Source: Nitrospirota bacterium (GTDB taxonomy: Bacteria > Nitrospirota > Thermodesulfovibrionia > Thermodesulfovibrionales > JdFR-86). Taken from it: a stretch of 64,000 nt of DNA. The notes beneath the pieces were generated by a model. It had not been told where the DNA came from and made no database searches. It saw only the letters and a list, made by a program, of their open reading frames with translations. The translations under genes and the position numbers were made by a program. Where the stretch lies: NCBI GenBank assembly GCA_963721805.1, contig CAVRJY010000001.1:160001-224000 (forward strand), written 5' to 3'. This document shows, piece after piece, positions 9,555-62,690 of this stretch; the first letter of the stretch is position 1, and each line of letters begins with the position of its first letter.

Positions 9555-9862
9555 GTTCTTTGAAAGCGCGCTAAAGTCGCGTGATACGTCGTTACGGTTC
9601 GAATCCTCGCCCTCGATGTACGTCACAGTACACCGTCGGGCGGTCTTCTCGCCGCTCCTAGTCTGAGCCTAATTTCGGCCCGCTTTGCGGGGTTAGACGC
9701 GGCAAGGGCATTTATTGAAAGGGCCTGTCGGCCCCCGCTGGACCCCGCACCCCAAGGTCAACGGCTTATTTGATGCCTTTTTCCGGGGTTGGTCGCGGCA
9801 AGTGCTTTTATTGAAAGGGCCGGTCGGCCCCCGCTGGACCCCGCACCCCAAGGTCAACGGCA
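9555..9862 (-). repeat. Dispersed palindromic element copy 1, with duplicated head segment
   Basis: AAAGCGCG..TGATAC..GTAC-N6-GTAC..GTCTGA..CGCTTT core; ends GGTCAACGGC at both 9765 and 9861. Confidence 0.85.
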
Positions 9863-9952
9863 TTCGTTAAAAAATATTCATAGCGGTCAGGTTATTGCAT
9901 GTGGTTCATGCCAGTCTAGATAATGCAGAGCAAGGACAGTTTTGTGCGTGGA

Positions 9953-9981
9953 TTGACATGCACCCTTTAAGCACTTATCAT
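9953..9981 (+). promoter_or_regulatory. sigma70-type promoter
   Basis: TTGACA-N17-TATCAT upstream of 10007. Confidence 0.6.
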
Positions 9982-10006
9982 ATTGCAAATACAAGTGGAG
10001 GTGTAG

Positions 10007-10522
10007 ATGAGTTTTATAGATGACAATCTAATGGCGGGCGAGAGGGTTGTGTATCGAACTCAGCTTCACTGGGCGATATTTATCATGCCAATTGTGCTGA
10101 CACTGACAGTCGTGTTTGCGATCATCGGAATCCCATGGCTGGTTATTATCTACATCGCGTATAAATCCTCGGAATTTGCGGTGACCAATAAAAGGGTATT
10201 GATCAAGGTCGGGCTTATCAGGCGTGAGTCTCTTGAAACGCTTCTTCAGAAAGTTGAAGGCATACATGTCGAACAGGACATTCTTGGCCGTATATTTAAT
10301 TATGGGACAATCATAGTCAAGGGTACTGGTGGAACAAGCAATCCATTTAAGACAATTTGTTCACCGTTTGAGTTTCGCAAAATAGTGCAAGAGCAGGTCG
10401 AGAAATCATATGGGCAGCAAGGTGCTACTGAAGTTGCAGGTAAAGTGTTTTGCCGGCACTGCGGTGAGGCAAGCTTGAAGGGTTCAAGGTTTTGCAGTAG
10501 GTGCGGTAAAGAGATGGCATAA
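10007..10522 (+). CDS. Bacterial PH-domain membrane protein with C-terminal zinc ribbon
   Basis: EFAVTNKRV, GRIFNYGTI; CRHCG..CSRCG; AT-richer than flanks; RBS GGAGG. Confidence 0.85.
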   Translation: MSFIDDNLMAGERVVYRTQLHWAIFIMPIVLTLTVVFAIIGIPWLVIIYIAYKSSEFAVTNKRVLIKVGLIRRESLETLLQKVEGIHVEQDILGRIFNYGTIIVKGTGGTSNPFKTICSPFEFRKIVQEQVEKSYGQQGATEVAGKVFCRHCGEASLKGSRFCSRCGKEMA

Positions 10523-10523
10523 G

Positions 10524-10799
10524 GTGAAAAGTTACCGCTTTACAGCGAGGTTCGAGAAGGCATTCGGCCGGTTGCCGGAGGATGCGGCGGAGCTGTTTTT
10601 GAAAAAGCTCCCGCTGCTGCTCGTGAACATGCGGCATCCTTCGCTGCGCGTAAAGAAGATGCTGGGCCTGCACGACCCTGAGGTCTGGGAGGGCTCGCTC
10701 AGCATGGATTACCGATTCACGTTTCAGGTAGAAAAAGACGGCACGCTGACGTTCAGGAGCATCGGCCACCATGGGATATTGGATAAAGAGAAGAACTAA
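10524..10799 (+). CDS. RelE/ParE-superfamily toxin-like protein
   Basis: 91 aa; RHPSLRVKK, WEGSLSMDYRFTF, IGHH pattern. Confidence 0.75.
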   Translation: MKSYRFTARFEKAFGRLPEDAAELFLKKLPLLLVNMRHPSLRVKKMLGLHDPEVWEGSLSMDYRFTFQVEKDGTLTFRSIGHHGILDKEKN

Positions 10800-11104
10800 G
10801 CGGGTTTCTTTGCGCGGCTGGACTTGCGGAGCTTTTTTAAATGCTCGATCCCTTCAGCGGGGGTGGAGAACTTCTTCGATACCCTGCCGGCCTTGATGTC
10901 CTCTTCGGCCTCGCGCTCCGCGTCCTGCCAGCCCTTTTGCCAAAACCACGCCTGATCCGCATCGACGAGCTTCTTGGCCTTGACCGAGACGCCGCGCTCG
11001 CCCACGACGAAATCGAGGTAGTCGCCCGCCTGAGCGTTCATCGCCTCCATGACGTCCTTGGGTATGCGGACCTGTCCGCTGGGGCTGATCTTCACTGTGC
11101 TCAT
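10796..11104 (-). CDS. AbrB/MazE/SpoVT-family antitoxin-like protein
   Basis: GQVRIPKDV..GDYLDF AbrB motif; DQAWFWQKGWQDAEREAEEDIKAGRV tail. Confidence 0.85.
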   Translation of the reverse strand: MSTVKISPSGQVRIPKDVMEAMNAQAGDYLDFVVGERGVSVKAKKLVDADQAWFWQKGWQDAEREAEEDIKAGRVSKKFSTPAEGIEHLKKLRKSSRAKKPA

Positions 11105-11110
11105 ATGTTT

Positions 11111-11140
11111 ATTCTAAACATATATTGGTCTTGTAGTCAA
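11111..11140 (-). promoter_or_regulatory. sigma70 promoter of the antitoxin gene (probably leaderless)
   Basis: TTGACT-N18-TAGAAT, 6 nt before ATG. Confidence 0.55.
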
Positions 11141-11150
11141 CTCTAATTAG

Positions 11151-11330
11151 TGCCGTTGACCTTGTGGGGCGCGGGGGGGCTTCCGCAATCCTCTCCCCCC
11201 GAAAGCGCGCCCAAATCGTCTTCAGACAAGGCAGGGCGAGAAGACCGCCCGACGACGTACTGAGACGTACATCGAGGGCGAGTCTTTGATGCCCAACGCA
11301 GTATCAAGCGATTTGGAGCGCTTTAAAGAA
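11151..11330 (+). repeat. Dispersed palindromic element copy 2
   Basis: TGCCGTTGACC head; AAAGCGCGCCCAAATCG..CGATTTGGAGCGCTTT outer stem. Confidence 0.9.
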
Positions 11331-11361
11331 GCGAGCGATTAGGGATAAGCGACCGGATGCC

Positions 11362-11394
11362 CCCTCTCTCCCTCTGGGGGTGAGGGAGAGAGGG
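11362..11394. repeat. CCCTCTCTCCCTC/GAGGGAGAGAGGG hairpin (REP-like or Hsp20 terminator)
   Basis: 13-bp perfect stem, 7-nt loop. Confidence 0.6.
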
Positions 11395-11424
11395 ACCGAT
11401 CCGGGTGTGGGTACGGGCGGGTTG

Positions 11425-11808
11425 TTAATTGGAGGTGACGGACGCCCCCATGACCTCGATCTTGCGGCCCTTGGCGGCCTCGGCCTTAGGCATCGCGAGC
11501 GTGAGCACGCCGTTACGGACGGACGCTGTGATGCGGTCGCGGTCGATCTCGTCAGTGAGCTTAAAATCCCTGCGGTAGCTGCCGACGCCGTGCTCCGAGT
11601 ACACGAGCTTGTAGCCGCCGAGCGGCTCGGCCGGCTCGACCCTGCCCGCTATCGAGAGCAGGTTCTTCTCGATGGTGATATCCACTGATTTTTCGTCCAC
11701 GCCGGGCATCTCGGCCCGAAGCACGATCTCGCCGCCCTGCTCGAAGATGTCCACGGCCGGGCTATAGAGTCTTTCCTTCTTCTCGGTGAGTTCCGCTGTG
11801 CATGTCAT
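11425..11808 (-). CDS. Hsp20/alpha-crystallin small heat-shock protein
   Basis: PAVDIFE, AEMPGV, ASVRNGVLTLAMPK. Confidence 0.92.
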   Translation of the reverse strand: MTCTAELTEKKERLYSPAVDIFEQGGEIVLRAEMPGVDEKSVDITIEKNLLSIAGRVEPAEPLGGYKLVYSEHGVGSYRRDFKLTDEIDRDRITASVRNGVLTLAMPKAEAAKGRKIEVMGASVTSN

Positions 11809-11867
11809 ATTAATTTCCCTCTCTCGTTCTATGATCGCAGGCCGACGGCCTGAACGTCGCTATATAT

Positions 11868-11883
11868 AACAAGGAACGTGCCA
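11868..11883 (-). promoter_or_regulatory. sigma54 -24/-12 promoter of Hsp20
   Basis: TGGCAC-N5-TTGTT (non-canonical -12). Confidence 0.55.
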
Positions 11884-12016
11884 GGGATAATACACTTTAA
11901 AAACAACGCTTTCTTGGCCGGCTTGATTGGTATGGGTAGGGCGCTATGGGACATAATGTCCTAGATGAGTGCGAGAGTCAGGATCGGCGCGGGTATGGAA
12001 GGTAGGACGTTATGAC

Positions 12017-13492
<1,476 letters not shown>

Positions 13493-13861
13493 GCGCGGTA
13501 TCCGACCATGTAGTCGGCCACGACGCGTGCAGGGTCAAGCCCGAGCTGCTGGGCGTACAGGCGCAGGTAGCCGCGCAGGAAGACCTCGGCCGGGAGTTTC
13601 TGGAACTGCTCGTGCTCGATCGCATCGAAGTGTATCCAGCGGACCTTCGTGACCTGCTCCATCTCCTTGAGGTCGAGGCCGAGCTGTTCGCGGATGCCGC
13701 GCAAGTGCGGGCCTGTGTACCTCGAAGCGGCCGCCGCCTTCTCTTCGCCCATCGCCTACCCCCTCGCCCAAGGTAAATGCCCGGTCACTTTGGCCCAGTG
13801 CATAATGATACAACAGTACAACCATGGATGACAAGAAAATCCGGCGTCAAGGTCCTTGCCG

Positions 13862-14575
13862 CTACCTCAGCCCGTTTAGGTCTCCGAGGCTCTTGAAGGC
13901 GCGCAGGTAGTATCCGCGCAGCTCGCTGATATCGCCCGCGATCGCGGCGCGGTCTCCGGAGGCCGATGCGGCCTCGAGCCTCTCGATTGCATCGGTCTCG
14001 ACCTGCAGCAGGCCGTGGTATGCCTCGGTGTTTTCTCCTGCAAGGGGGGTAACGTCGGCCAGTTCGATCGAGCGCCAGAGGCTGCGAGCCTCGGGCGTGA
14101 GCCTCCGGACGCCCTGCAGCTCGGAGTCGGTTATCTGGCCGTCCGCCGCGGCCGAGGACAGCAGGCCGAGCGTCTCTTCGAACTCCAGGTACCTGTCGAT
14201 CACCGAGGGCTCGGGCCACGCCTCGTGCGCGGCAAGCCTCATTTTTCCGAGCTTCCTGTGGGCCTCGTGCAGCCTGTTTACGGTTATGTCGGCATATGCG
14301 GCCTCGGCCAGGTCGCCCGCTTCGGCAGCCGCGCTGCTCCAGGCAGGGTTAGCCTCGATGATGCCGCGGTTTTGGGTCAGAAAGAGCTTCCAGCGCATCC
14401 TGAGCCTCTCGAGCGCCAGGACCGCCTGCCCCGCGTCCCCGCCCTCATCGGTGAGCGTGTAGGCCGCGATCCATGTCCTGTCGATCAGCGCGTGGTCGAG
14501 GCCGGCCTCGGGCTCCTTGCATCCGGCCGCCGCGAGCGCGACGAATAAGGCCGCTGCCAGTAATCGCTTCATCAC
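13862..14575 (-). CDS. Hypothetical lipoprotein
   Basis: Signal peptide with lipobox AAGC. Confidence 0.7.
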   Translation of the reverse strand: MMKRLLAAALFVALAAAGCKEPEAGLDHALIDRTWIAAYTLTDEGGDAGQAVLALERLRMRWKLFLTQNRGIIEANPAWSSAAAEAGDLAEAAYADITVNRLHEAHRKLGKMRLAAHEAWPEPSVIDRYLEFEETLGLLSSAAADGQITDSELQGVRRLTPEARSLWRSIELADVTPLAGENTEAYHGLLQVETDAIERLEAASASGDRAAIAGDISELRGYYLRAFKSLGDLNGLR

Positions 14576-14648
14576 AGGGTTATCATAACATGAACCCGCG
14601 AGGCTTGGGTTCCGCGGTATTGTAATCCTCCCTGTTTCCTGCTATCCT

Positions 14649-15845
14649 TTGGGCATCGGGGGAGTTGGGGAGACAGGTACGGAAAAGGAAAAGGGCGCGA
14701 ATCCGCTGGCCGGGCTTTCGGCGATGGGCAAGGACGAACTCCGCTCGGAGCTGATTAAGCTCAGGCGGAGGTACGCCCGCCTGGAAAAGACCGCGACGAA
14801 GGCCGGGGAGGCCGGAGAGGCGCAGCGCGCAGCGCATGACGAGCAGGTCAAGACCGAGGCGATACTCGGCGGGCTCGGCGTCGGCGTCATCATTCAGGAC
14901 CTCGATTACCGCGTGATGTACGAAAACCCCTTCCAGCAGGCCGTGACCGGCTCGCACATCGGGGAGCTCTGCTATCAGGCCTTCGAGGGCCTCGACCGGG
15001 CCTGCGAAGGCTGCCCGATGCGGCTGAGTATCTCCGACGGCGGCATACACAAGGGCTACCGAGAGATCAAGACCCAGGAGAGGACGAAGCATTTCGAGCT
15101 GATCACGACCCCGCTTAGGGACTCCGAGGGCAGGATCGTCGGTGGCATCAAGGTGGTGAGGGACATCACGGACCTCAGGGCCGCGCAGGCCGAGGCCGAA
15201 GGCGCGCTGGCCGCGCGCGACTCGCTGCTGCTGGAGATACACCACCGGGTCAAAAACAACATGCAGATCATCTCGAGCATCATAAGGCGGCAGGAACGCC
15301 ATGCCGCGAGCCCCGAGGTCGCCGACGCCCTCAGCGACGTGCAGGGCCGTATCCGCTCGATGGCCCTTGCACACGAAAAGCTCTTTTACTCGCCCACTCA
15401 CGACAGCATCAACATGGATGAATACGTCCGCGACCTCGCCGTCCACCTGGTGCAGAGTTTCCCCGGCAGCAAGTCCAAGGGCGTGGAGATAAAGCTCGAG
15501 GTCGAGCCTATATCCGTCTCGGCCGAGACCGCGATCCCCTGCGGCCTGATAGTGAACGAGGCCGTATCTAACGCCTTAAAGCACGCCTTCGGCGATGGCC
15601 GCACCGGGGCCGAGGTCTGCATCACGCTCAGGCGCGAGGACTGGGGCGGCCTCCTGCTGGAGGTCCGGGACAACGGCTCGGGCCTGCCTCCGGGCCTCGA
15701 CATCCGGAACTCCGTGTCGGTCGGCCTCGACCTCATGGCCATACTGGCCGAACAGCAGCTCCGGGGCGAGTTCGAGATAGAACGCACCGGGGGCACGACC
15801 GTGCGCGTCCTGTTTAAGGAACTCGAATACAAAAAGCGTTTTTGA
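14649..15845 (+). CDS. PAS-domain histidine kinase (HisKA_2 type)
   Basis: EIHHRVKNNMQ, NEAVSNALKHAF, DNGSG; start uncertain. Confidence 0.9.
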   Translation: MGIGGVGETGTEKEKGANPLAGLSAMGKDELRSELIKLRRRYARLEKTATKAGEAGEAQRAAHDEQVKTEAILGGLGVGVIIQDLDYRVMYENPFQQAVTGSHIGELCYQAFEGLDRACEGCPMRLSISDGGIHKGYREIKTQERTKHFELITTPLRDSEGRIVGGIKVVRDITDLRAAQAEAEGALAARDSLLLEIHHRVKNNMQIISSIIRRQERHAASPEVADALSDVQGRIRSMALAHEKLFYSPTHDSINMDEYVRDLAVHLVQSFPGSKSKGVEIKLEVEPISVSAETAIPCGLIVNEAVSNALKHAFGDGRTGAEVCITLRREDWGGLLLEVRDNGSGLPPGLDIRNSVSVGLDLMAILAEQQLRGEFEIERTGGTTVRVLFKELEYKKRF

Positions 15846-16021
15846 ACCTATCTCAAAATCCCTTCTGGCCGAAAGAGGCTGAAATCGCGGGATACTGCGT
15901 CGTAAAGAAAAAATCGTTCCTCGATGTAGCGCTGCTACACCGTCGTCCGATTTTCCCTTTCCTCCTTGTCTGCCACGATTTCCTCTCTCTTTCGCCTCAG
16001 AATCAATTTTGAGATAGGTTC
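15844..16021. mobile_element. MITE-like element with 16-bp terminal inverted repeats around a core related to the dispersed element
   Basis: GAACCTATCTCAAAAT..ATTTTGAGATAGGTTC; inner GATACTGCGTC..CCTCGATGTAGC-GCT-GCTACACCGTC..CCTTGTCTG. Confidence 0.75.
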
Positions 16022-16061
16022 TGATCCCACCTTCTTCCTCTTTGTTTGTTAGAATATCCCG

Positions 16062-16835
16062 ATGAATATAAAACGTATCGAGAGTGCAAAGAACCCCGCG
16101 CTTAAACCGCTGCTGTTTCCGAAGCGCGCCGGGGGCGCGTTCGTGGTCGAGGGTCCAAACCTGCTTGAGGCCGCGCTCCACTCCGGCCGCGTCGAACTCG
16201 GGCCGCTGTTCGTCACGGCCCGCGCCCTGGAGCGCCATCAAGACCTTATCGAGGCTGCCAGCCGCATCGCACCCGCCCTGTACGAGATACCCGAGCACGT
16301 GATGGCGCGCATCTCCGGGGTCGAGGCCCCGCCGGGCATGGCCGCGCTCTGCACCTTGAGCCGCGCATGGTCGGTGGATGATATCGAGCGCGCGTCCGTC
16401 ATAGTCGTGCTCGATGCGCTCGGGGAGCCCGGCAACGTCGGGACTATCATCCGGAGCGCCGAGGCCGCGGGTTCGGGAGGCGTGGTGGTGCTGCCGGGCA
16501 CCGCGGACCCGTACTCAGATAAGGCCCTGCGCGCATCGGCAGGGGCCACGCTTCGCATGCCGATAGTGAGGCTGGAGTCCATCGAGGCGCTGGGCGGGAT
16601 GCGCATATTGATCGCGGAGCCGCGCGGCGGGGTGGCGGTATACGAGGCCGACCTCAGGCCGCCGGTCGCTGTAGTATTCGGAAACGAGGCGCACGGCGCA
16701 TCCGGGATTACGAAGTTCAAGGCCTCGGGGACGGTCTCGATACCTCTTGCGGGGCGGGCCGAGAGCCTGAACGTCGCTGCGGCCGCTGCGGTCGTGCTTT
16801 TTGAGGCGCTAAGACAGAGGGGCGTTAAGGGATAG
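16062..16835 (+). CDS. TrmH/SpoU-family RNA methyltransferase
   Basis: PGNVGTIIRSA, FGNEAHG, ESLNVAAA. Confidence 0.92.
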   Translation: MNIKRIESAKNPALKPLLFPKRAGGAFVVEGPNLLEAALHSGRVELGPLFVTARALERHQDLIEAASRIAPALYEIPEHVMARISGVEAPPGMAALCTLSRAWSVDDIERASVIVVLDALGEPGNVGTIIRSAEAAGSGGVVVLPGTADPYSDKALRASAGATLRMPIVRLESIEALGGMRILIAEPRGGVAVYEADLRPPVAVVFGNEAHGASGITKFKASGTVSIPLAGRAESLNVAAAAAVVLFEALRQRGVKG

Positions 16836-17223: not shown

Positions 17224-17379
17224 GTCCCACCCCCGGCAGTGCATGTGTCGAGCACGCGAGAAAAGTATAGCACACCGCCGAGGCCTGCTGCGGGAGTTCG
17301 ACCGCTTGAAAAAACAGCGTATTAAATGATAAATTCATAAGCTCAAAAGTCCGCTTTAATCCATTGGCAAAGACGGAGG

Positions 17380-20111: not shown

Positions 20112-20142
20112 CGCGACGGTAGGGAAGAGAGAGAAAAAATAA

Positions 20143-21434: not shown

Positions 21435-21525
21435 GGGGTCATGGACCCCTCCTCCTCGGGTGGAGCATCGTTCCCCCTCTGAAGGGCTTATTAAGAAGGG
21501 GCCAGTCGGCCCCCCGCCCCCGCAT
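21435..21525. repeat. Free-standing short GC-hairpin module
   Basis: GGGGTCATGGACCCC..GGGGCCAGTCGGCCCC; same hairpins occur inside element copies. Confidence 0.65.
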
Positions 21526-24923: not shown

Positions 24924-25100
24924 GAAAGCGCTCCAAATCGCTTGATACGTTGTCGCCGTCCGAAAAACGATCCTTGACGTATGTCCATATACGCCGCCGG
25001 GGGTCACGGACCCCTCCTACGAAAGAAAAGGGGCAGTCGCCCCCTAGTCTGAAGACGATTTGGCGCGCTTTGCGGGGAGTAGCCCCCGCGGTCAACGGCA
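24924..25100 (-). repeat. Dispersed palindromic element copy 3, with nested hairpin module
   Basis: AAAGCGCTCCAAATCGCTTGATAC..GTCTGAAGACGATTTGGCGCGCTTT..GGTCAACGGCA. Confidence 0.88.
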
Positions 25101-41472: not shown

Positions 41473-41631
41473 AAAGTGCGCGAAATCGCGTGATACGTTG
41501 TCATGGCTCGGAAATCCGTCCTCGGAGTACGCTCAAGTACACCGTCGGACGTTTTCCTCGCCATTCCTAGTCTGACGCTGATTTCTCGCGCTTTAAATTT
41601 CAATCTCATAAGTGTGCGAGCGGTCAACGGC
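41473..41631 (-). repeat. Dispersed palindromic element copy 4
   Basis: AAATCGCGTGATAC..GTAC-N6-GTAC..GTCTGACG..CGCGCTTT..GGTCAACGGC. Confidence 0.85.
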
Positions 41632-41632
41632 T

Positions 41633-41956
41633 CAGTTATATACATAGTTATCGCGCGCGTGCGCGCGCATTTTTTTAGAGCGTTCAAATGAACGAAGAAA
41701 AAACAGTGCAAGGTAGCGGAATCCATGGCTAATTTGAAAGCCTCCATGTTCATGCGTTCAGAAACGGTTTCCGTGCATTCCATCGGCCTTCTGCTCCGCT
41801 TTCTCTGACCTCAAAATGGGCATATAACCCTCATCCAGTATTGAATCACAACGCTATGACAAAAAGCGATAAACTACGGTTTATATATAAACCCAAGTTG
41901 ATAGAAAAAATTGATAGCCGTGCGTTTTCTACTAACTTCCGATTAACTATGGTTAA
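41633..41956 (+). repeat. AT-rich module A attached to the element head
   Basis: Both ends match 60215-60548 in inverse orientation. Confidence 0.75.
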
Positions 41957-42219: not shown

Positions 42220-42398
42220 TGCCTTTGACCATGTGGGGCGCGGAGGGCCTCCTTTATCCGTGCCCCCCGAAAGCGCGCCCAAATCGGCTTCAGACAAGGC
42301 AGGGCAAGAAGACCGCCCGATGGTGTACTGTGACGTACATAGAGGGCGAGTCTTTGAAGCCCAACGAAGTATCAAGCGATTTGGAGCGCTTTAAAGAA
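42220..42398 (+). repeat. Dispersed palindromic element copy 5
   Basis: TGCCTTTGACC head; core close to copies 2 and 6. Confidence 0.9.
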
Positions 42399-43416: not shown

Positions 43417-44090
43417 AGACCTCCAACCCAGGTTAAAAGTATGCTGAAGAAATAAAGCAGGGGCGCCATGAGAAACCTCGTTGCGCCCGTGGCGATCAGG
43501 AGCATCACGATCATGAACCCGAACGGCTCGAGCCTCGCAAGCTGCCGGCCCATGCTGTAGGGCAGCAGCCCGACCGCGACGCGCCCGCCGTCAAGCGGGG
43601 GGATCGGGATAAGGTTAAACGAGGCCAGCACGAGGTTCATCGTGATGCCAGAGATCAGCATCAGCCTCAGCGGATGAAGCACCGACTCTGCGGTATCGGG
43701 CGATACGAACGCAGAGGCAGGGATCACGACAAATTTGATGAGCAGCAGGCTTATGACCGCCAGCAGGATGTTGCAGACCGGCCCGGCCGCGGCCGTGATC
43801 GCCATGCCGCTGTGCGGGTTTTTGAAGTTATTGGGGTTGATCGGCACGGGCTTGGCGTAGCCGAACATGAACCTCCCGCCGCTGAGGATCAGCATCGCTA
43901 TCGGCAGGATGATCGTGCCGACGAGGTCTACGTGCGCCAGCGGGTTTAGCGTCAGGCGTCCGAGCATCTTCGCTGTGGGGTCCCCGAGGCGGTTGGCGAC
44001 ATACCCGTGCGCGACCTCGTGAAAGGTGATCGCGATCAGTATCGGGATGGCCGATATCGCTATCTGTCTGATTGTATCCGTTATGTCCAT
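43413..44090 (-). CDS. Site-2 protease (M50 family)
   Basis: HEVAH, NLIPIPPLDG. Confidence 0.93.
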   Translation of the reverse strand: MDITDTIRQIAISAIPILIAITFHEVAHGYVANRLGDPTAKMLGRLTLNPLAHVDLVGTIILPIAMLILSGGRFMFGYAKPVPINPNNFKNPHSGMAITAAAGPVCNILLAVISLLLIKFVVIPASAFVSPDTAESVLHPLRLMLISGITMNLVLASFNLIPIPPLDGGRVAVGLLPYSMGRQLARLEPFGFMIVMLLIATGATRFLMAPLLYFFSILLTWVGGL

Positions 44091-44152
44091 GGTGGAAAGC
44101 TTATGATATAGCCTATCTCAAAGGCATGTCAAACAAGCGTATAATTGTATCC

Positions 44153-44611
44153 ATGCCGGATATATCGCACGCAGATATAGCGGATGCGGCTGAGATACTC
44201 GAGCTTCAGAAGCTCGCGTTTCAGAGTCAGGCCATATTATACGATTACTGGTCCATGCCGCCCCTGACCCAGACGCTTGAAGATATCAGGGAGGAGTTCG
44301 GCAGGCTCGTATTCCTGAAGGCGACCGAGTCAGGCAGGATCATAGGCTCGGTCAGGGCGTCGCTAGATGACGGCACCTGTCATATCGGCAGGCTGATCGT
44401 ACATCCCGATTTTCAGAACCAGGGCATCGGCACGCGGCTGATGCGGGCGATAGAGGCCGAGTTCCCGGACGCGCAACGCTACGAATTATTCACCGGCAGC
44501 AGGAGCGAGCGCAATATCCACCTCTACGAGAAGCTCGGCTACAGGATCATCAGGCAAGAGCCGGTATCGAATAATGTCTCACTTTTGTATATGGTTAAGG
44601 CGCTTAGCTGA
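44153..44611 (+). CDS. GNAT acetyltransferase
   Basis: VHPDFQNQGIG, LYEKLGY; ATG 7 nt after TATAAT. Confidence 0.9.
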   Translation: MPDISHADIADAAEILELQKLAFQSQAILYDYWSMPPLTQTLEDIREEFGRLVFLKATESGRIIGSVRASLDDGTCHIGRLIVHPDFQNQGIGTRLMRAIEAEFPDAQRYELFTGSRSERNIHLYEKLGYRIIRQEPVSNNVSLLYMVKALS

Positions 44612-44636: not shown

Positions 44637-44817
44637 TGCCATTGACCTTCGGGGCCGGGGGGCCGACCGTTCTTCCGTGCCCCCCGAAAGCGCGCCCAAA
44701 TCGTCTTCAGACAAGGCAGGGCAAGAAGACCGCCCGATGGTGTACTGAGACGTACATAGAGGGCGAGTCTTTGAAGCCCAACGACGTATCAAGCGATTTG
44801 GCGCGCTTTGAAAGAAC
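44637..44817 (+). repeat. Dispersed palindromic element copy 6
   Basis: TGCCATTGACC head; core close to copies 2 and 5. Confidence 0.9.
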
Positions 44818-54412: not shown

Positions 54413-56430
54413 CTGCCTTCGAGCGCCTTTTCTATCTGGATTTCCCTGAGCCGCGCAGCGGCCATCTTGCCTATGATCGAGCTTCCGGGGCTTATGAGCT
54501 TAAAAAGCTCCTCCTGGTCCGGGCCGCTGCTCATGACCGCCATCCTGTATGTAGCCCATTCGTTCGTCGCGTCCCTGGCGTGCGCTTCCTCGTAGAAGCT
54601 GAGGGATTTCTGCCTCTGCCCTAGGTCGTAGAGCATGTCCGCGAGCGAGAGCAGCACGGCCGCTGAGGGATCGTTAGCAGAATTCACCGCGCGCTCGAAA
54701 TAAGCTGCGGCCTTCGCGGGGTCGGATGAGCCCTTATATGACTGCCCGAGCAGGAGGAGGTCGTCCTCCGTAGGATTTTTGATCGAGAGTATGCGCGAGG
54801 TCGCGCCCTTGAGGTCGTGCTCGGCGAACAGTATCGCGGCGTCGGCCCGCTGGACGTCAGGGCCCTTCGCGCCCTGGAGCGTCTTTAGGCGGTCGAGGTA
54901 GGTCCTCGCCCTCTGGAAGTCCCCGGTCGCGGTATAGTGGTTGACGAGTTCGGCCAGCGCGCGCGTGCGGCCCTCGCGCGAGCCGTTTTCCTCGACCCAC
55001 TGCAGGGTGTCGAGATACGGCTCGCCGAGCTTCTTGAGCCTGAAGGCGATGTCCAGGAGCGTTGCCTCGCGCTTGGTGTCGAGCATCCATTTCTTTATGG
55101 CGGCCCAGGTGGACTTCAGGTCTTCGTCGTCACCGGCCTTCAGGTATGCCTTTAAGATGTTCTCGTATTCGTCGACGGCCTTGGCCTCGGGCTGAAACCT
55201 CATGACCAGCTCGCGGAGGTGGCCCATGGCGTCCTTCTGCTTGCCCTCGGCCTCGTCGATGCGGGCCAGGCCGAGTATCGCGGCATCGTATTCCTTGCCG
55301 TAGGGGAACTTCGAGCGGATCTCCTCGAGCGTGGCGCGGGCCTCGGTGAGCCGCCCGGTGCGGGCCTGTATGGCCGCGAGCTCAAGGAGCGCCGAGACCG
55401 CGATCTGGCGCGTCTGGGAGGACTTCAAGGCCTCAAGGCCGCTTATCGCCTCGTCGTCGCGGCCCTCGGCGGAGGCGATCCTCGCCAGGCCGAGCGCGGC
55501 GCGCTCCCTGTCCGGGCCGGACTGGATATCCTTCAGCATCTGGCGTGCGTCGAAGAGCTTCCCCTGCTGCCTGAGCGTCTCGCCGTACATGTAGCGCGCG
55601 TCGGCGGACTGTTGCAAGTACCTCGGGTACTTCGTCTGGGCCTCGCGGAACGCGCGTTCGGCCTCGTCGAACCTGCCCATGCGGCCGAGCGCCTCGGCCT
55701 CGCCGAATCCGGCTGCCGCGGACTGCCCGGCCTGCTGGAAGCTCGGGATCGCCTCGCCGTAGAGCTTCAGGCCCATCAGGGCCTGCCCGAGCCCGAGGTG
55801 GGCCTCCTCGGATAGCTTGGAGTTCGGGAAGCTCTTTAGGAATATCATGAAGTCCGCGCGCGCCTCGATATGGTGCTTGAGCGCGAGGTACGTCCGGCTG
55901 CGCTCGAACAGCGCGAGTTCCTTGAGCTTCTGGTCGGCGCTCAGCACGTAGGCGCCCCTGAATGAGTCTACCGCGTCGAACATGCGGCCCTGGCTGCGGT
56001 ACAGGAGGCCCTGCATGAAGTTAAGCGGCGGGTATGGGTTCGTGGGCGGCCTGTATGCGGCCAGGTCCTTCGCGGCCTCATTAGGGTTGCCGTTTTTGAT
56101 ATGCAGGAACGCGAGCTTCAGCGTAGGGTTGGATATCGCGAGATCTATCGAGTAGTCGATGTCGAACTTCGGGGCCTCGGCCGCCGGGGCGGCCTGCGGT
56201 TCTGAGTATGCGTGCCTCTCGTAAGGCTCATAGTTTCCGGGTGAAGGAGCGGTGGACGCGGGTCTGTCGTAGGGCGCATAGTTTCCGGGTGTTTGCGCCG
56301 GGGATGGCCTCTCGGCCCCGGACGGGCCCGCAGGCTTGACGATAGGCGCGAAGATCGAGGGCGGCGCGGTGTCCGCCGCCATAGCGGCCGAGGCCATCAA
56401 GATTATGATCGCTGTAAGAAACGCTCTCAT
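54409..56430 (-). CDS. Exported TPR-repeat protein
   Basis: Signal peptide, Pro-rich linker with duplicated PGNYxPY, TPR-like helices. Confidence 0.85.
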   Translation of the reverse strand: MRAFLTAIIILMASAAMAADTAPPSIFAPIVKPAGPSGAERPSPAQTPGNYAPYDRPASTAPSPGNYEPYERHAYSEPQAAPAAEAPKFDIDYSIDLAISNPTLKLAFLHIKNGNPNEAAKDLAAYRPPTNPYPPLNFMQGLLYRSQGRMFDAVDSFRGAYVLSADQKLKELALFERSRTYLALKHHIEARADFMIFLKSFPNSKLSEEAHLGLGQALMGLKLYGEAIPSFQQAGQSAAAGFGEAEALGRMGRFDEAERAFREAQTKYPRYLQQSADARYMYGETLRQQGKLFDARQMLKDIQSGPDRERAALGLARIASAEGRDDEAISGLEALKSSQTRQIAVSALLELAAIQARTGRLTEARATLEEIRSKFPYGKEYDAAILGLARIDEAEGKQKDAMGHLRELVMRFQPEAKAVDEYENILKAYLKAGDDEDLKSTWAAIKKWMLDTKREATLLDIAFRLKKLGEPYLDTLQWVEENGSREGRTRALAELVNHYTATGDFQRARTYLDRLKTLQGAKGPDVQRADAAILFAEHDLKGATSRILSIKNPTEDDLLLLGQSYKGSSDPAKAAAYFERAVNSANDPSAAVLLSLADMLYDLGQRQKSLSFYEEAHARDATNEWATYRMAVMSSGPDQEELFKLISPGSSIIGKMAAARLREIQIEKALEGR

Positions 56431-56444
56431 CGCGCTGATTTACT

Positions 56445-56460
56445 TGCAACACTCATGCCG
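56445..56460 (-). promoter_or_regulatory. sigma54 promoter of the TPR-kinase-regulator operon
   Basis: CGGCAT-N5-TTGCA. Confidence 0.6.
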
Positions 56461-56562
56461 GGCTCAAAGGTACTGATTTTGAATGCTTTTATCTCCTTGA
56501 GTGAAGTCGGGTTTTTGACGATCACATTAAGCTCTGACACGCGAACGCGGCTAGTTTCAACC

Positions 56563-56712
56563 GAAAGTGCGAGAAATCGCGTCAGACAAGGGTGCCACGG
56601 GCACTTTTCTTTAACAGGAGGGGGTCCGTGACCCCCGATGGTGTACTGTGACGTACATAGAGGGCGGATTTTTGAAGCCCTGACGCAGTATCACGCGTAT
56701 TTGGCGCGCTTG
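56563..56712 (+). repeat. Dispersed palindromic element copy 7 (nested module, degenerate head)
   Basis: AAATCGCGTCAGACAAGG..GTACTGTGACGTAC..GTATCACGCG..GCGCGCTT. Confidence 0.85.
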
Positions 56713-56748
56713 AGGAAAGTGGAGGATTCGCAAAGCAGCTTTCGTTAA

Positions 56749-57795
56749 TTAATAAGTTATATTCTTCTTCTTAATCTTTTCAATCAATGTCGTGCGATTT
56801 AATCCTAGAAGCGACGCCGCCTTGCTCTTGACCCCGCCTACCCGTTTGAGGGCAACGGTGATCATATGCCTCTCGATCTCATCCATCAGGTCATTAAGGT
56901 TCACCCCGCCTTCCGGGAGCGGGAAGAGGAAGTCAGGCCGGGGCTCGGCATATGAGAACCTCGGGCCGTCCTCGGCCGCGGGCGCGGCGGGCGCGGTAGA
57001 GATCATCGAGGGCTCCGGCGCGCCCAGGACGCGCGGGGGGATGTCCTGCATCGTGATGGAGTCGTCGTTACAGAGGGTCACCATGCGCTCTATCGTGTTT
57101 TCGAGCTCGCGCACGTTGCCGGGCCAGTGGTAGACTTGCAGCTTCTCGACGACCTCCTGCGAGACCTCGACCTCGCGGCCCCGTTTTTTGGAGAAACCGG
57201 TAACGAACTCCTGCACCAGCAGCGGTATGTCATTTTGCCTCAGCCGCAGCGGCGGCAGGTGCATCGGGATGACGTTGAGGCGGTAGTAGAGGTCCTCGCG
57301 GAACGCCCCGGTGCGCGTCGCGGCCTCCAAATCGCGGTTCGTCGCGGCGAGTATTCGGACGTCGACCGAGATCGTCTTGGTCCCGCCAACGCGCTCGAAC
57401 TGCCGCTCCTGAAGCACGCGCAGGAGCTTGACCTGCAGCGTCGGGTGCAGCTCCCCGATCTCGTCGAGGAATATCGTGCCCCCGCTTGCGAGTTCGAACC
57501 TGCCCGGCCTCATCGCTATGGCGCCCGTAAACGCGCCCTTCTCGTGGCCGAACAGCTCGCTTTCGAGGAGGTTTTCGGGGATCGCGGCGCAGTTGACAGG
57601 GACGAATGGTTTGGGTGCGCGGTCGCCGTTTTGGTGGATCGTCTTGGCTACGCGCTCCTTGCCGGTGCCGCTCTCGCCATAGATAATAACGGTGGTATCG
57701 GAGGCCGCGACCTTGCGGATCAAATCGAAGACCTGCATCATTTGACGCGATTCGCCCGTAAGCATTGGGTAACGGCCCTCTCCCCGTTGGTCCAT
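56749..57795 (-). CDS. FleQ/FlrA-like sigma54 activator without N-terminal regulatory domain
   Basis: AAA+ starts almost at the N-terminus; GAFTGA; C-terminal LGLNRTTLIEK. Confidence 0.88.
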   Translation of the reverse strand: MDQRGEGRYPMLTGESRQMMQVFDLIRKVAASDTTVIIYGESGTGKERVAKTIHQNGDRAPKPFVPVNCAAIPENLLESELFGHEKGAFTGAIAMRPGRFELASGGTIFLDEIGELHPTLQVKLLRVLQERQFERVGGTKTISVDVRILAATNRDLEAATRTGAFREDLYYRLNVIPMHLPPLRLRQNDIPLLVQEFVTGFSKKRGREVEVSQEVVEKLQVYHWPGNVRELENTIERMVTLCNDDSITMQDIPPRVLGAPEPSMISTAPAAPAAEDGPRFSYAEPRPDFLFPLPEGGVNLNDLMDEIERHMITVALKRVGGVKSKAASLLGLNRTTLIEKIKKKNITY

Positions 57796-57977
57796 AGGAT
57801 ATAGCCTAGAATAAACATTTTGCCAATGTCAATAGTTTGACTTATTTTGCTGGTTTGACGCGGACAAGACGGCTCGCGTATGGGGAGCAGCCCGATGCGG
57901 TGCTTTTGGATGCGGCCGGATGGCCCGTTTACCGGGCCTTGCTATTGCCGCGCCTCATCTGGTTTAATCGGCTTACG

Positions 57978-59819
57978 ATGTACAACCTTCCGCGGATAGA
58001 TCCCATGCTCGCGCGCGACGGGCGCGGGCTGGTCGTCCTGGAGTCCCTCAGGCCGGATGCGCAGAACCGCACCAGCTATGTCTTTCGAGAGCCGGAGAAA
58101 GTCCTTACCGCTCATGACTGCGAGGGCGTGGCCCGCGCGCTTACGGAGATCGACCGGCTCTCGCGGGAGCGCTGGATCGCGGGGTACATCACTTACGAGG
58201 CGGGGCTCTGCATGGAAGGGGCCACGGGCCCTCTCCTCGCCACGGGCCCTCTCCTATGGCTCGGGGTATACAGCGGTGCCACCAAGTACGACCACGTAAC
58301 GGGTCAAATTGCGGGAGACGCTGCGGTGTTCGCATCGGGTGAGGTTGAGCAAGGGGATTACGCTATCACAAACCTCGCGCTTGAGATGGACGCGGCGCGG
58401 TACGCCGAGCGCATAGGGCGGGTGAAAGACTATATCGCTGCCGGGGACGTCTACCAGGTGGACTTCACGACCGGGTACGCTTTTGATTTTACGGGCTCGG
58501 CATATGCCCTTTATGACGCACTCAAGAGAAAGCAGACCGTGGCATACGCCGCGTTCATCCGCACGGATAAAGGCGGAGAGGTGCTATCTCTCTCGCCGGA
58601 GCTGTTTTTAAGGCGAAGCGGCGACATAGTGACAGTAAGGCCGATGAAGGGCACCGCACCCCGTGGCCGCACCGCGGCAGAGGACGCCGCGCAGGCAACG
58701 TACCTCGCCGCCGATCCCAAGAACCGCGCCGAGAACGTGATGATCGTCGACCTGATGCGCAACGACCTCGGCCGCATCAGCCGCACGGGCGGGGTGCGTG
58801 TTGCGAGTCTCTTTGACGTCGAGCGGTACGAGAGCCTGCTTCAGATGACGAGCACGGTCACGGCCGAGCTCAGGCCGGACGTTAAATGGTCAGAGATCAT
58901 GCGCTGCATCTATCCTTCGGGCTCGGTGACCGGCGCGCCGAAGATCAGGGCCATGGAGATCATACGCGAGCTGGAGGACGGGCAGCGCGGGGTATACACC
59001 GGGGCGATAGGGTTCATCGCGCCGGGCGGCCGCGAGGCCGCGTTTAACGTACCGATACGGACTATAGAGCTAAGCGGCGGACGTGGCCGGATGGGCGTGG
59101 GAAGCGGGATAGTCGCGGACTCCGGGATCGCGGCGGAGTACGAGGAGTGCGTGCTTAAGGCCGCGTTTCTGACCTCGCCCCCGGTTGCGCCATTTAAACT
59201 GATTGAGACGATGCTCTGGGAGCGGGGCGGATATAAGCGGCTGGCGCTGCATATGGAGAGGCTGGCCGCCTCGGCCTCGTACTTCGAGATTCCGCTGAGT
59301 GAGGATGGAGTCAGGCGGGCGCTAGATGATGCCGCATCCGCGTTCGATGCGAATCTGCGATACCGCGTGAGGCTCACGCTCGATAGCGATGGCCGCTCCG
59401 ATGTTAATGCGGCCGGGCTGGTTGATACCGCTTCGGATACCGTCGCGATCTCGCCGCTTCGCACATCGAGAAAAGATGTCTTCCTGTATCACAAGACCAC
59501 AAACCGCGCGCTTTATGATGCGGAGTTCAAGAGGTGCTCTGCGGAAGGCCATGCGGACGTGCTGTTTTTAAATGAGGAGGGCGAGCTGACCGAGGGCGCG
59601 ATATCGAACGTGTATGTCGAGATCGAGGGCATGCTCTATACCCCACCGGTCGGGTGCGGTCTGCTCGCTGGCGTGATGCGGCGCGTGCTGCTTGAAGAGG
59701 GCAGGTGTACCGAGCGTGTGATCACCCTGGACGACCTCAAGGCCGCGGATGCGGTCTATATCTCGAACTCGGTGCGCGGGCTTAGGAGGGTCAGTATCGT
59801 ATTGCCGGCACTGCCGTGA
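57978..59819 (+). CDS. pabB: Aminodeoxychorismate synthase component I fused to a class IV aminotransferase/ADC lyase domain
   Basis: SPELF, PMKGT, AENVMIVDLMRND, GSVTGAPK; HKTTNR, EGAISN; start uncertain. Confidence 0.9.
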   Translation: MYNLPRIDPMLARDGRGLVVLESLRPDAQNRTSYVFREPEKVLTAHDCEGVARALTEIDRLSRERWIAGYITYEAGLCMEGATGPLLATGPLLWLGVYSGATKYDHVTGQIAGDAAVFASGEVEQGDYAITNLALEMDAARYAERIGRVKDYIAAGDVYQVDFTTGYAFDFTGSAYALYDALKRKQTVAYAAFIRTDKGGEVLSLSPELFLRRSGDIVTVRPMKGTAPRGRTAAEDAAQATYLAADPKNRAENVMIVDLMRNDLGRISRTGGVRVASLFDVERYESLLQMTSTVTAELRPDVKWSEIMRCIYPSGSVTGAPKIRAMEIIRELEDGQRGVYTGAIGFIAPGGREAAFNVPIRTIELSGGRGRMGVGSGIVADSGIAAEYEECVLKAAFLTSPPVAPFKLIETMLWERGGYKRLALHMERLAASASYFEIPLSEDGVRRALDDAASAFDANLRYRVRLTLDSDGRSDVNAAGLVDTASDTVAISPLRTSRKDVFLYHKTTNRALYDAEFKRCSAEGHADVLFLNEEGELTEGAISNVYVEIEGMLYTPPVGCGLLAGVMRRVLLEEGRCTERVITLDDLKAADAVYISNSVRGLRRVSIVLPALP

Positions 59820-60117
59820 TTTCCGCGCTGATCCTCGCCATCACGCCATCAATGCCTGAAAGCACGTCTGTCTGCGTGCAGCTTAAAAACCTGATCCCGT
59901 AGCCCTCGATGATCGCCTGACGCTTCTTGTCCGGGCCCTTCGCGCCCTCGATCTCGACCACCAGCCTGAGCTTGGGGCAATAGAAATCAACGACCAGCTG
60001 CCCGACGCCGTATTCGCGGCTGAACCTGTAACCATTCAGGTCTGTTTCCTTCAGCCTGGCCCAGAGGGCGGCCTCGGCCTTCGGCGCTTTAATCTCAAGC
60101 AGTCCGTTTTTTGTCAT
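59791..60117 (-). CDS. DUF559 (Vsr-like) endonuclease-domain protein, possibly degenerate
   Basis: AEAALWARL, FSREY..VVDFYC..LVVEIEG, GIRFL; usual DG..H segment absent. Confidence 0.8.
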   Translation of the reverse strand: MTKNGLLEIKAPKAEAALWARLKETDLNGYRFSREYGVGQLVVDFYCPKLRLVVEIEGAKGPDKKRQAIIEGYGIRFLSCTQTDVLSGIDGVMARISAEITAVPAIRY

Positions 60118-60214
60118 TTCGTTTGCCTCACTGAATGTTCCGGCCAAAGGTATATTGTTGATGGCGGGTGCGTCTTATTAAGTATAGCATTTACGTGGCA
60201 ATCGGCCTCATTTA

Positions 60215-60548
60215 TTAACCATAGTTAATCGTAAGTTAATAGAAAACGCACGGGCATGAATTTTTTCTATAAGCTTCGGTTTATATATAAACCAAAGTTT
60301 GGCATTCTTTAGTGTATATTGGTTCTATGAGCAGTTTAGGATCATATCTGATGGGTAGCGCAGGCGGGGTTAGAGGGTTCCGCACTTGTTCGGATAAAGG
60401 GCTGAAAAGAGCCAAAAATATCCGAACATCCGAACACGGGGAACTAGGAGAATCAATATTTTCCGCAGAGTTATCACCGGTTTTGCGCCCGACATCCGAA
60501 CAGAATCGGCAAAAACGCGCGCGCACGCGCGCGGAATGCATAACTATA
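60215..60548 (-). repeat. AT-rich module B attached to the element head
   Basis: TTAACCATAGTTAA, GGTTTATATATAAACC and CGCGCGCGCACGCGCGCG shared with module A. Confidence 0.75.
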
Positions 60549-60570
60549 CCTAAGCGCGGACATCAGAACA

Positions 60571-60767
60571 TGCCTTTGACCTCGTGGGGCGCGGGGGGCG
60601 TCCTTCGTCCGTGCCCCCCGAAAGCGCGCCCAAATCGTATTCAGACAAGGGGCCGACTGGCCCTTTCTTCAGGAGAGGTGCCCGTGGCACCCCGATGGTG
60701 TACTGTGACGTACATAGAGGGCGAGTCTTCGATGCCCAACGACGTATCAAGCGATTTGGAGCGCTTT
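60571..60767 (+). repeat. Dispersed palindromic element copy 8, with nested module
   Basis: TGCCTTTGACC head; core with inserted GGGGCCGACTGGCCC and GGTGCCCGTGGCACC hairpins. Confidence 0.9.
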
Positions 60768-60846
60768 GATCGAAAGGGACGCTTGCCAGATGAGGCCGCT
60801 TTAAGGTTAAATGGTGGTTCAATAAAACTAAAGGTAGGTGTCCCTA

Positions 60847-62532
60847 ATGGCTACAGTTGAGCCTAATAAGATTATTTATTCCATGGTGCGGGTCAGCAAG
60901 CTCTACGACCGCAAGCCCATAATCAAGGACATCTCGCTCTCGTATTTCTACGGTGCCAAGATCGGCGTGCTCGGGCTGAACGGCTCGGGCAAGAGCACGC
61001 TTCTGAAGATCATGGCCGGGGTCGAGAAGGAGTTTGAGGGCACCGCTGTGCTCTCGCCCGGATACACCGTCGGATACCTCGAGCAGGAGCCGCTCCTGAG
61101 CTCGGAGAAGACCGTGCGGCAGGTCGTTGAGGAGGGCGTGCAGGCCACGGTCGATCTCGTAAACGAGTTTAACCAGATAAACGAGAAATTCGCCGAGCCG
61201 ATGTCGGATGACGAGATGGAAAAGCTGTTAAAGAGGCAGGGCGAGGTGCAGGAGCAGCTCGACCACCTTGACGCGTGGGACCTCGACTCGCAGCTTGAGA
61301 TGGCGATGGACGCGCTCGGATGCCCGGACGGCGCGATGAACGTTAACGTCCTTAGCGGCGGCGAGCGCAGGCGCGTCGCGCTATGCAGGCTGCTGCTGCA
61401 GAAGCCCGACATACTGTTGCTGGACGAGCCCACCAACCACCTCGACGCCGAGACCGTGGCGTGGCTCGAGCACCACTTGAAGGCTTACGCCGGTACGGTC
61501 ATCGCGGTGACGCACGACCGCTACTTCCTCGATAACGTCGCGGGATGGATACTCGAGCTAGACCGCGGCGAGGGCATCCCGTGGAAGGGGAATTATTCCT
61601 CGTGGCTGGAGCAGAAAGAGGCCCGCCTCGCCAACGAGGAGAAGCAGGAATCGCAGCGGCGTAAGACTCTCGATAGGGAGCTTGAGTGGATACGGATGTC
61701 CCCCAAGGGCCGCCACGCAAAGGGCAAGGCCCGCATCAGCTCATACGAGGCCCTGCTCGGGCAGGAGGCGGAGAAGCGCGCCGAGGACCTTGAGATCTAC
61801 ATCCCTCCCGGCCCGAGGCTAGGGAAAACCGTAATAGACGCCGAGGGCGTCACGAAGTCATACGGCGAGAACATCCTTATGGAGAACGTATCGTTCATGC
61901 TCCCGCCGGGCGGCATAGTCGGCGTGATCGGCCCAAACGGCGCGGGCAAGACCACGCTATTTAGGATGATCACCGGGGCCGAGGAGCCGGACGCGGGCAC
62001 GCTCAAGGTCGGCGAGACCGTGACGCTCGCGTACGTGGACCAGAGCCGCGAGGGCCTGAGCGCGGACAAGAGCGTGTATGACGAGATCTCGGGCGGCTAT
62101 GACATGATAAAGATGGGCTCGCGCGAGATCAATGCGCGCTCCTATGTCGGGAAGTTCAACTTCTCGGGCACCTCGCAGCAGAAGAAGGTCGGGATGCTGT
62201 CGGGCGGCGAGCGCAACCGCGTGCACCTGGCGAAGCTGCTGAAGTCCGGGGCGAACGTCATATTGTTAGACGAGCCGACGAACGACCTCGACGTCAACAC
62301 CCTGCGCGCGCTCGAAGAGGCGCTCCTGAACTTCGGCGGCTGCGCGGTGGTGATCAGCCACGACCGCTGGTTTCTGGACCGCATCGCCACGCACATGCTG
62401 GCGTTCGAGGGCGATAGCAAGGTCGTATGGTTTGACGGGAACTACTCGGAGTACGAGGCCGACCTTAAGGCGCGGCTAGGCGTAAACGAGATCACGCCGC
62501 ACAGGATAAAATATCGTCACTTGACTAGGTAG
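60847..62532 (+). CDS. ettA: ABC-F translational throttle EttA
   Basis: YGAKIGVLGLNGSGKST, two LSGGE motifs, ELEWIRMSPKGR. Confidence 0.95.
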   Translation: MATVEPNKIIYSMVRVSKLYDRKPIIKDISLSYFYGAKIGVLGLNGSGKSTLLKIMAGVEKEFEGTAVLSPGYTVGYLEQEPLLSSEKTVRQVVEEGVQATVDLVNEFNQINEKFAEPMSDDEMEKLLKRQGEVQEQLDHLDAWDLDSQLEMAMDALGCPDGAMNVNVLSGGERRRVALCRLLLQKPDILLLDEPTNHLDAETVAWLEHHLKAYAGTVIAVTHDRYFLDNVAGWILELDRGEGIPWKGNYSSWLEQKEARLANEEKQESQRRKTLDRELEWIRMSPKGRHAKGKARISSYEALLGQEAEKRAEDLEIYIPPGPRLGKTVIDAEGVTKSYGENILMENVSFMLPPGGIVGVIGPNGAGKTTLFRMITGAEEPDAGTLKVGETVTLAYVDQSREGLSADKSVYDEISGGYDMIKMGSREINARSYVGKFNFSGTSQQKKVGMLSGGERNRVHLAKLLKSGANVILLDEPTNDLDVNTLRALEEALLNFGGCAVVISHDRWFLDRIATHMLAFEGDSKVVWFDGNYSEYEADLKARLGVNEITPHRIKYRHLTR

Positions 62533-62538
62533 ATTTTA

Positions 62539-62690
62539 AAAGTCGCACTAAAGTCGCGTGATACTGCGTCAGGGCTTCGGAAATCCGTCCTCGGAGTACG
62601 TCACAGTACACCGTCGGACGTTTTCCTTGCCGACGCGATTTATCGCGCTTTAGCGCAGCTTGCGCTTAATCGTGCGAGCGGTTAACGGCA
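62539..62690 (-). repeat. Dispersed palindromic element copy 9
   Basis: GTCGCGTGATACTGCGTC..GTAC-N6-GTAC..CGCGCTTT..GTGCGAGCGGTTAACGGCA; closest to copy 4. Confidence 0.85.

Follow-up and report, generated by a model that had tools for sequence, protein, structure and literature searches.

In the minimal mobile elements of Neisseria, cassettes are exchanged by homologous recombination after transformation. ERIC elements (enterobacterial repetitive intergenic consensus) are 127 bp long with TA ends and yield RNA whose processing depends on their orientation; such repeats have been known for more than 30 years, with no mobilising enzyme demonstrated as of 2007 (PMC2229807). The window analyzed here, a stretch of 64,000 nucleotides (C1:160001-224000) from the 2.78-Mb, 94% complete genome of a Nitrospirota bacterium, holds a family of structured intergenic repeats in which an earlier note had recognized nine one-headed copies and a relative bounded by terminal inverted repeats (TIRs). 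All ten elements were found where the note had placed them, on both strands and between genes. What the note missed is the main feature of the family: the heads face foreign DNA, and pairs of copies enclose exchangeable genes. Across the genome, the repeats border about 45 small slots of foreign genes.

A covariance model, which the note had proposed as a check, was built; all ten window elements score 43-137 bits, and the family proved to be genome-wide. A profile of the nine copies gave 237 matches in the genome and a rebuilt profile gave 241 non-overlapping matches, 169 of them full length. From head to tail, a full copy (repeat unit about 180 bases) consists of a degenerate AT-rich stretch and the head GCCGTTGACC, followed by a variable hairpin, a core of 123 nt and a tail extension rich in purines. 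The AT-rich stretch reads YYYAAWYAAW with A at position -2 in 170 of 176 heads, and the five bases preceding the head are of more than 20 types. Eroded head-plus-hairpin units lie upstream of 34 of the 176 heads. Among 168 copies no two are identical, and the median distance from a copy to its nearest match is 18 differences; the 56 columns of highest conservation deviate at 1%. Hairpin, arm and inner-stem types are mixed among copies, and left and right arm types agree in about 130 of 140. Headed copies have neither TIRs nor TA ends, and the TIRs of the headless relative at 15844 are of a different type from the TA-ended TIRs of ERIC.

The repeat is structured: its core shows strong covariation, and the head-first strand gives the best fold. 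Stability z-scores for two copies were -4.9 and -4.4, with none of 200 shuffles equally stable. Two-sided changes occur at 20 of 39 pairs in 35 cores, a number reached by none of 500 shuffles, and 90.5% of cells are paired compared with 28-49% in slid controls; the structure was drawn from the same sequences that were tested, which favors that structure. Among 152 cores, G-U pairs outnumber A-C mismatches by 102 to 26, and the head-first strand is the more stable in 136 when folded as RNA and in 140 when folded as DNA. This strand bias indicates that one strand folds and does not distinguish RNA from single-stranded DNA.

The polarity of the repeat toward foreign DNA is apparent from composition, gene content and the arrangement of neighboring copies. 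GC content in the 400 bp before the head was lower than in the 400 bp after the tail in 149 of 169 copies (0.50 v 0.60), a difference that fades by 3 kb. According to crude gene calls, 209 genes have low GC at third codon positions (GC3); a head is found no more than 1.5 kb away from 65 of them and a tail from 5, compared with 220 and 251 of all 2317 genes. TIR-bounded cores in relatives, taken as a control, had no polarity (8/21), and in six of the seven TIR-bounded cores of the studied genome the GC difference was 0.04 or less. Neighboring copies separated by 0.3-3 kb form 55 pairs, of which 35 are inward-facing, 17 direct and 3 outward-facing (P 2e-9). Genome-wide there are 45-46 inward pairs, only two of them under 300 bp, and the spacers between paired arms hold 0.5-6 kb of gene cargo. 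Tails lie -2 to 23 nt from the stop codon in 62 of the 99 cases in which a gene converges on them.

The cargo consists of intact open reading frames (ORFs) with flanks of 25-150 bp. Scans of 40, 28 and 10 ORFs, which represent part of all cargo, identified toxin-antitoxin pairs, MNT-HEPN, KAP NTPase, a kinase, a restriction enzyme and many proteins without a family; PADLOC models were matched by 7 of the 28 cargo proteins scanned, in some cases because of generic kinase or TPR domains. In no case were two slots seen to share a near-identical cassette. A non-coding module of about 360 bp, termed module B, adjoins 46 of 165 heads. At its end stand repeated YTAAC boxes and a TAAC-N4-GTTA palindrome, beyond which the DNA differs (32 ends listed). 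By the same crude gene calls, cargo shows no orientation bias relative to module B (17 away, 15 toward). The stretch before the head did not covary with the arms of its own copy, which gives no support to a base-pairing guide. A proposed arrangement of one type-I and one type-II head, as defined by the base before the head, was not supported.

Sister contig C9 (13.7 kb) allowed one two-sided slot to be compared. C9 is collinear with C1:844383-858281 at 80-85% identity, differs from it at 65 of 160 and 13 of 73 four-fold sites (18-41%), and is a co-binned sister lineage or an old duplicate. Three of three elements occupy the same sites in both contigs. At the two-sided slot, the contigs align across the left element and about 20 bp beyond its head, and then again from the far end of module B onward; the intervening 1.5-1.6 kb is unrelated, with DUF5677 and MNT-HEPN in C1 exchanged for DUF4019 and other ORFs in C9 (GC 0.44 in both). 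At the remaining element site the cargo gene is retained. In the left element the hairpin has 2 differences from its orthologue, the nearest of 145, and the core has 35; in the right element module B is nearest to its orthologue (rank 1 of 28; 36 differences, the next match 112), with 27 differences in the hairpin and 33 in the core. Two orthologous cores rank 79-111 of 145 and the third, with 21 differences, ranks 17-20, and all six C1 and C9 cores fold. Thus, element interiors have been replaced block-wise in place with the fold kept. [quoted passage not shown] Moreover, an element-gene-element unit is duplicated in C1 at 465 kb and 486 kb with 83% identity, and homology ends at the elements. 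A low-depth DNA run, which may derive from the source sample, revealed no joints or empty sites; one of its contigs covers the left head-cargo joint of C1 without differences. Synteny around the tRNA synthetase gene beside copy 5 was uninformative, as its downstream neighbor varies among 10 relatives. Contigs C3, C7 and C8 match parts of C1 at 80-95% identity, as does C9, and represent co-binned sister lineages or strains; elements occur only in C9.

These comparisons bear on the interpretation given in the earlier note, a REPIN-, PATE- or MITE-like mobile element or a repeated structured RNA. Structure, single-strand folding and MITE ancestry were borne out, the last by the presence of the same core in TIR-bounded elements here and in relatives and by its match to ERIC. 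A currently mobile REPIN or PATE was not, given that no RAYT gene and, around inward pairs, no target duplications were found and that all 168 copies are distinct. Identical occupied sites in relatives, which the note took as an argument against mobility, were found in part, namely the three of three in one sister copy. A related explanation invokes a non-autonomous mobile element inserting tail-first at the ends of genes, such that two insertions within one intergenic space point toward each other and foreign DNA finds a passive safe haven between them. It agrees with the MITE ancestry of the core, with the closeness of tails to gene ends, with the targeting of these repeats by three insertion sequence (IS) families and with the approximately 240 copies that arose in one lineage, which imply that the family was once mobile. 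Nevertheless, this explanation is unlikely: there are no identical copies; no target-site duplication of at least 3 bp was found outside 46 inward pairs (single copies were compared by eye only); no cognate transposase was found among the families searched; and the three sites are common to the sister copy. Moreover, the two partners of an inward pair resemble each other no more than randomly paired copies do (median 60 v 64), which, with the absence of target duplication, indicates that the pairs are not composite transposons. Passive havens would also leave the in-place rewriting with kept fold unexplained.

Our leading reading, to which we assign slightly less than an even chance, is that an ERIC-type, TIR-less, stationary repeat borders the slots, that host recombination likely rewrites the repeats and swaps their contents, and that the folded strand is probably kept for an RNA role. 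Host recombination is favored because block replacement in place and the bounded duplication are the product expected of recombination among dispersed copies. The core of a TIR-bounded MITE would have lost its ends and gained a head, and the approximately 240 copies would then offer homology for RecA-type conversion and exchange. Natural transformation may supply incoming DNA; a ComEC gene is present in the genome. New foreign DNA would first join just outside a head, or at the far end of module B, through YYYAAWYAAW microhomology, and would then spread between strains by double crossover in arms and flanks. Transcripts starting in AT-rich cargo or module B would read the element from head to tail, fold, and be processed like ERIC and Correia RNAs. 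Such processing could shield the neighboring host gene and would account for the persistence of foreign genes only on the head side. By analogy with ERIC, selection on the head-first RNA fold might keep the polarity, a suggestion that we hold tentatively and a little short of even confidence. Slot swapping by host recombination, the likely route, would be a so far undescribed way of stocking accessory genes.

Several observations weigh against host recombination and an RNA role. The strand bias suits single-stranded DNA equally well (140/152). Of 51 truncated copies that extend to the tail, 13 have the apical loop as their starting point (one repeated composite accounts for some of these), and such half-copies hint at a specific cut. 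Both joints of the swapped slot lie outside the shared arms, so that the swap was not made by crossover between non-orthologous copies, and the right joint is 0-3 bp from the conserved module B end, as a site-specific event would give. Module B or module D occurs on one side in 27 of 45 pairs and on both sides in none (P 0.003). The tail faces a start codon rather than a stop codon in 65 of 164 copies, indicating that the element is not a plain barrier. Finally, the swap represents a single slot, the contig that holds it has broken reading frames, and one C9 core, with 2 differences from its nearest main-genome copy, may have been altered by polishing.

The exact module B joint, the one-sidedness and the apical-loop half-copies keep a dedicated cassette enzyme in consideration. 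Under this alternative, the main rival, a recombinase or nuclease would recognize the folded single-stranded core and join cassettes both to the head and to the palindrome at the far end of module B, giving a chromosome-wide system resembling integrons or pdif modules with dispersed two-armed slots. Sharp conserved boundaries (the A at -2 and the palindromic module B ends), cargo of intact ORFs with short flanks encoding toxin-antitoxin, HEPN, KAP NTPase and restriction enzyme functions, the absence of module B from both arms of any pair, and the breaks and a nested insertion in the apical loop are all in line with such an enzyme. We nevertheless regard it as possible but doubtful, since the six tyrosine recombinases scanned, out of seven, include no integron integrase and the seventh looks by eye like XerC, the heads bear no likeness to the single dif-like site, cargo has no orientation to module B, the pre-head stretch does not covary with the arms, and no two slots were seen to hold near-identical cassettes. 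It is similarly doubtful that the family represents a new class of gene capture, in which a domesticated ERIC-type element with about 45 slots and a putative enzyme guided by the folded strand swaps defense and toxin-antitoxin cassettes.

Very improbable is a further mechanism, RNA-templated capping, in which a reverse transcriptase would prime on AT-rich foreign ends and copy the element from its head, so that each fragment end gains a copy. The degenerate AT-rich motif before the head and the eroded upstream head-plus-hairpin units conform to this scheme, and host transcripts could provide an antisense template; set against it are the lack of an RVT_1 match in the genome and, at the swapped slot, cargo that is younger than the arms. 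The mobile MITE with havens and RNA-templated capping both fit the data less well than host recombination or a cassette enzyme.

The search for an enzyme covered selected families in the 94% complete genome. No RAYT gene was found; the six Y1_Tnp genes represent one identical IS200 with its own ends. IS110 (PF02371), IS91/ISCR Y2 (PF04986), RVT_1 (PF00078), DUF772 (IS1182) and DDE_Tnp_1 had no match in the genome. Of the seven tyrosine recombinases, one is XerD and one reads by eye as XerC; none of the six scanned with NCBIfam was an integron integrase, with TIGR02249 far below its cut-off. A single dif-like site, as judged by its motif, was present in the genome (C1 near 1448150, in an element-poor region) and none at the heads. 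The resident IS200, IS30 and IS481 were ruled out as drivers of the headed repeats; their own ends and near-identical recent copies identify them as passengers. Five of seven copies of IS30 (1096 bp) share one position in the left arm of the core. All ten copies of IS481 (C1:81095 and nine other sites) lie 90-575 bp away on the head side, in or beside the GGAAC repeats of module D. Of the six identical IS200 copies, five are within 1 kb on the head side and two in the far end of module B.

The earlier note could not assign the repeat to a named family; the core can now be matched to the ERIC type. Model R1 matched 9 of 40 relatives and 37 of 150 genomes of the phylum, in which the core is enclosed by inverted ends of at least three kinds. 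A second model, R2, derived from 65 such matches and from no Escherichia coli sequence, scored 24.9 bits (E 8e-6 in 1.5 kb) on the E. coli aceF-lpd element, which contains a 16-mer printed in the ERIC literature. Searched against the whole E. coli genome, R2 gave one match (E 7.4e-5), a 127-bp TA-ended copy; its strict filters recovered 1 of about 30 K-12 copies, and the E-values are rough. In all, two E. coli 127-bp TA-ended copies were scored by R2. R1 alone was not significant on E. coli ERIC (6.8 bits, E 0.44). The core is therefore ERIC-type and is seen inside TIR-bounded MITEs of relatives; the TIR-bounded relatives may fall within a published MITE catalogue. R2 also matched 4 of 50 unrelated genomes (Binatia, Pseudomonas, Myxococcota and Omnitrophota); core copies in the Myxococcota genome look nested or tandem. 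In other genomes of the phylum, cores stand in tandem directly before sequences that read by eye as tRNA genes.

As far as these searches extend, the headed form was found only in the studied genome. The head pattern gave 107 matches there and, among 400 other genomes of the phylum, one match in each of 12. A blastn search with one copy found none in 60 relatives, no plasmid match and four chance phage matches. Pattern-scan matches elsewhere (88 genome, 7 metagenome and 1 viral stretches) were attributed to chance; the eight metagenome and viral stretches failed the covariance model, and the 88 were judged by the looseness of the pattern, not individually checked.

Within the window, the layout described in the note needs some corrections. 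Copy 7 (56563), called degenerate there, has no recognizable head; copy 9 (62539) has a core of 113 nt that lacks the TCAGAC block and a head that contains TTAAC; and copy 3 (24924) has GTAT-N6-ATAC instead of GTAC-N6-GTAC. Additional small hairpins occur within the cores of copies 3, 7 and 8, and copy 1 has a second head-plus-hairpin unit in tandem. In agreement with the note, Pfam scans of 54 of the 176 listed window ORFs found no transposase family. Searched against Rfam, the window had no match at gathering scores, and seven related loci had no match of note.

Table 1. Features of the repeat family in the window (window coordinates; the last row gives contig positions outside it)
Feature	Position	Strand	Remarks
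Copy 1	9563..9770	-	Core 9563-9686, GC-rich hairpin, head; tail behind terminator of H+-pyrophosphatase gene
Tandem head-plus-hairpin unit upstream of copy 1	9765..9866	-	96-nt repeat
Cargo of inward pair copy 1/copy 2	9867..11145	.	GC 0.51
bPH_2 ORF	10007-10522		Copy 1/copy 2 cargo; GC3 0.47
115-aa ORF	10425-10772		Copy 1/copy 2 cargo; no family
AbrB/MazE ORF	10796-11104		Copy 1/copy 2 cargo
Copy 2	11151..11324	+	Full length
TIR-bounded MITE	15844..16021	-	Same core (15872-15992); no head, no GC polarity; ~7 such in genome
Copy 3	24925..25100	-	Small hairpins inserted in core; short module B piece upstream of head
Copy 4	41473..41631	-	Left arm of inward pair with copy 5
Module B joined to copy 4 head	41630..41956	-	~330-360 bp, non-coding, sharp distal end
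Copy 5	42220..42392	+	Tail faces stop codon of class I (Trp/Tyr) tRNA synthetase gene
Copy 6	44637..44809	+	GNAT gene 44072-44611 on head side
Copy 7	56563..56711	+	Headless, inserted hairpins
DUF559 gene	59791..60147	-	Head-side accessory gene beyond module B of copy 8
Module B joined to copy 8 head	60215..60570	+	
Copy 8	60571..60767	+	Inserted hairpins
Copy 9	62540..62690	-	Shortened left arm
IS30 sites	C1:387254, 649313, 759626; C2:367109, 397058		

At copy 4, module B contains ATCCGAAC-like repeats and a GGTT-N8-AACC palindrome; the latter was rejected as a regulon box (25 occurrences in module B, none elsewhere). Small REP-like hairpins, termed module C, extend upstream of the copy 9 head to about 62760, and a lone hairpin of this type lies between two host genes at 21482-21514. 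A promoter and terminator scan of window positions 59700-63400 found nothing exceeding shuffles. In some copies, module D carries an ORF of 139 aa. Most of the Atlas clusters nearest to it are viral, and several clusters include a minority of members with HTH families; the end of module D has promoter-like spacing. Element density along C1 ranges from 24 down to 2 per 100 kb, with a 120-kb gap (C1:513000-634000). A second core subfamily is nested in the apical loop of a headed copy at C4:138188-138316 and C1:1546530-1546656, and C4:32-18743 is an 18.7-kb stretch matching its own reverse complement at 82%.

The core of the repeat is of a known kind, and the slot arrangement is without description in the literature searched, in which no account was found of a TIR-less ERIC-type repeat bordering exchangeable gene slots. 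An ERIC-type core stripped of its transposon ends marks where this chromosome holds and exchanges foreign genes. If host recombination is responsible, this would be a clear case of a repeat organizing a pangenome into fixed slots; if an enzyme is, it would be a new cassette system beside integrons and pdif modules and would point to a role for the widespread ERIC-type core. Either way, the slots predict positions of unknown defense genes, and many cargo proteins match no family.

The repeat shares with ERIC a long rod-like fold with an AAGG/ACG internal loop and apical stem, an intergenic location and strand specificity, but lacks TIRs and TA ends, shows no target duplication around its inward pairs and differs in its one-sided head, extra hairpin, strict polarity to foreign DNA and pairing round exchangeable genes. 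It presumably also resembles the Correia/NEMIS and RPE hairpin MITEs. With REPIN/RAYT systems it has in common inverted doublets, compensatory changes, single-strand folding and intergenic placement; it is unlike them in having no RAYT, 0.5-6 kb gene spacers, unmatched partners, and arms that stay while the cargo changes (PMC3116915). Inverted doublets with a short spacer that move as a unit were not seen, with two pairs below 300 bp and stationary arms. A PATE relationship is likewise not indicated, as the IS200 ends differ and no fixed tetranucleotide precedes the head. Minimal mobile elements of Neisseria and replacement islands similarly carry differing cassettes at a fixed locus, but have host genes as their conserved flanks, whereas here the same structured repeat edges every slot. 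Integrons are alike in cargo types, compact single-gene units and a possible folded single-strand substrate, whereas the sites here are inverted and dispersed; no tandem array and no IntI were found. A direct, tandem attC-like arrangement was not seen: inverted pairs dominate, and the cargo shows no orientation bias. Unlike the pdif modules of Acinetobacter plasmids, the headed repeats are chromosomal, and their arms are structured and 180-540 bp long compared with XerC/D sites of 28 bp. Nevertheless, pdif modules likewise hold accessory and toxin-antitoxin genes between inverse sites, with shuffled contents and IS targeting of the sites, and the same arrangement was found here: accessory genes lie between inverted sites, and one exchange was seen.

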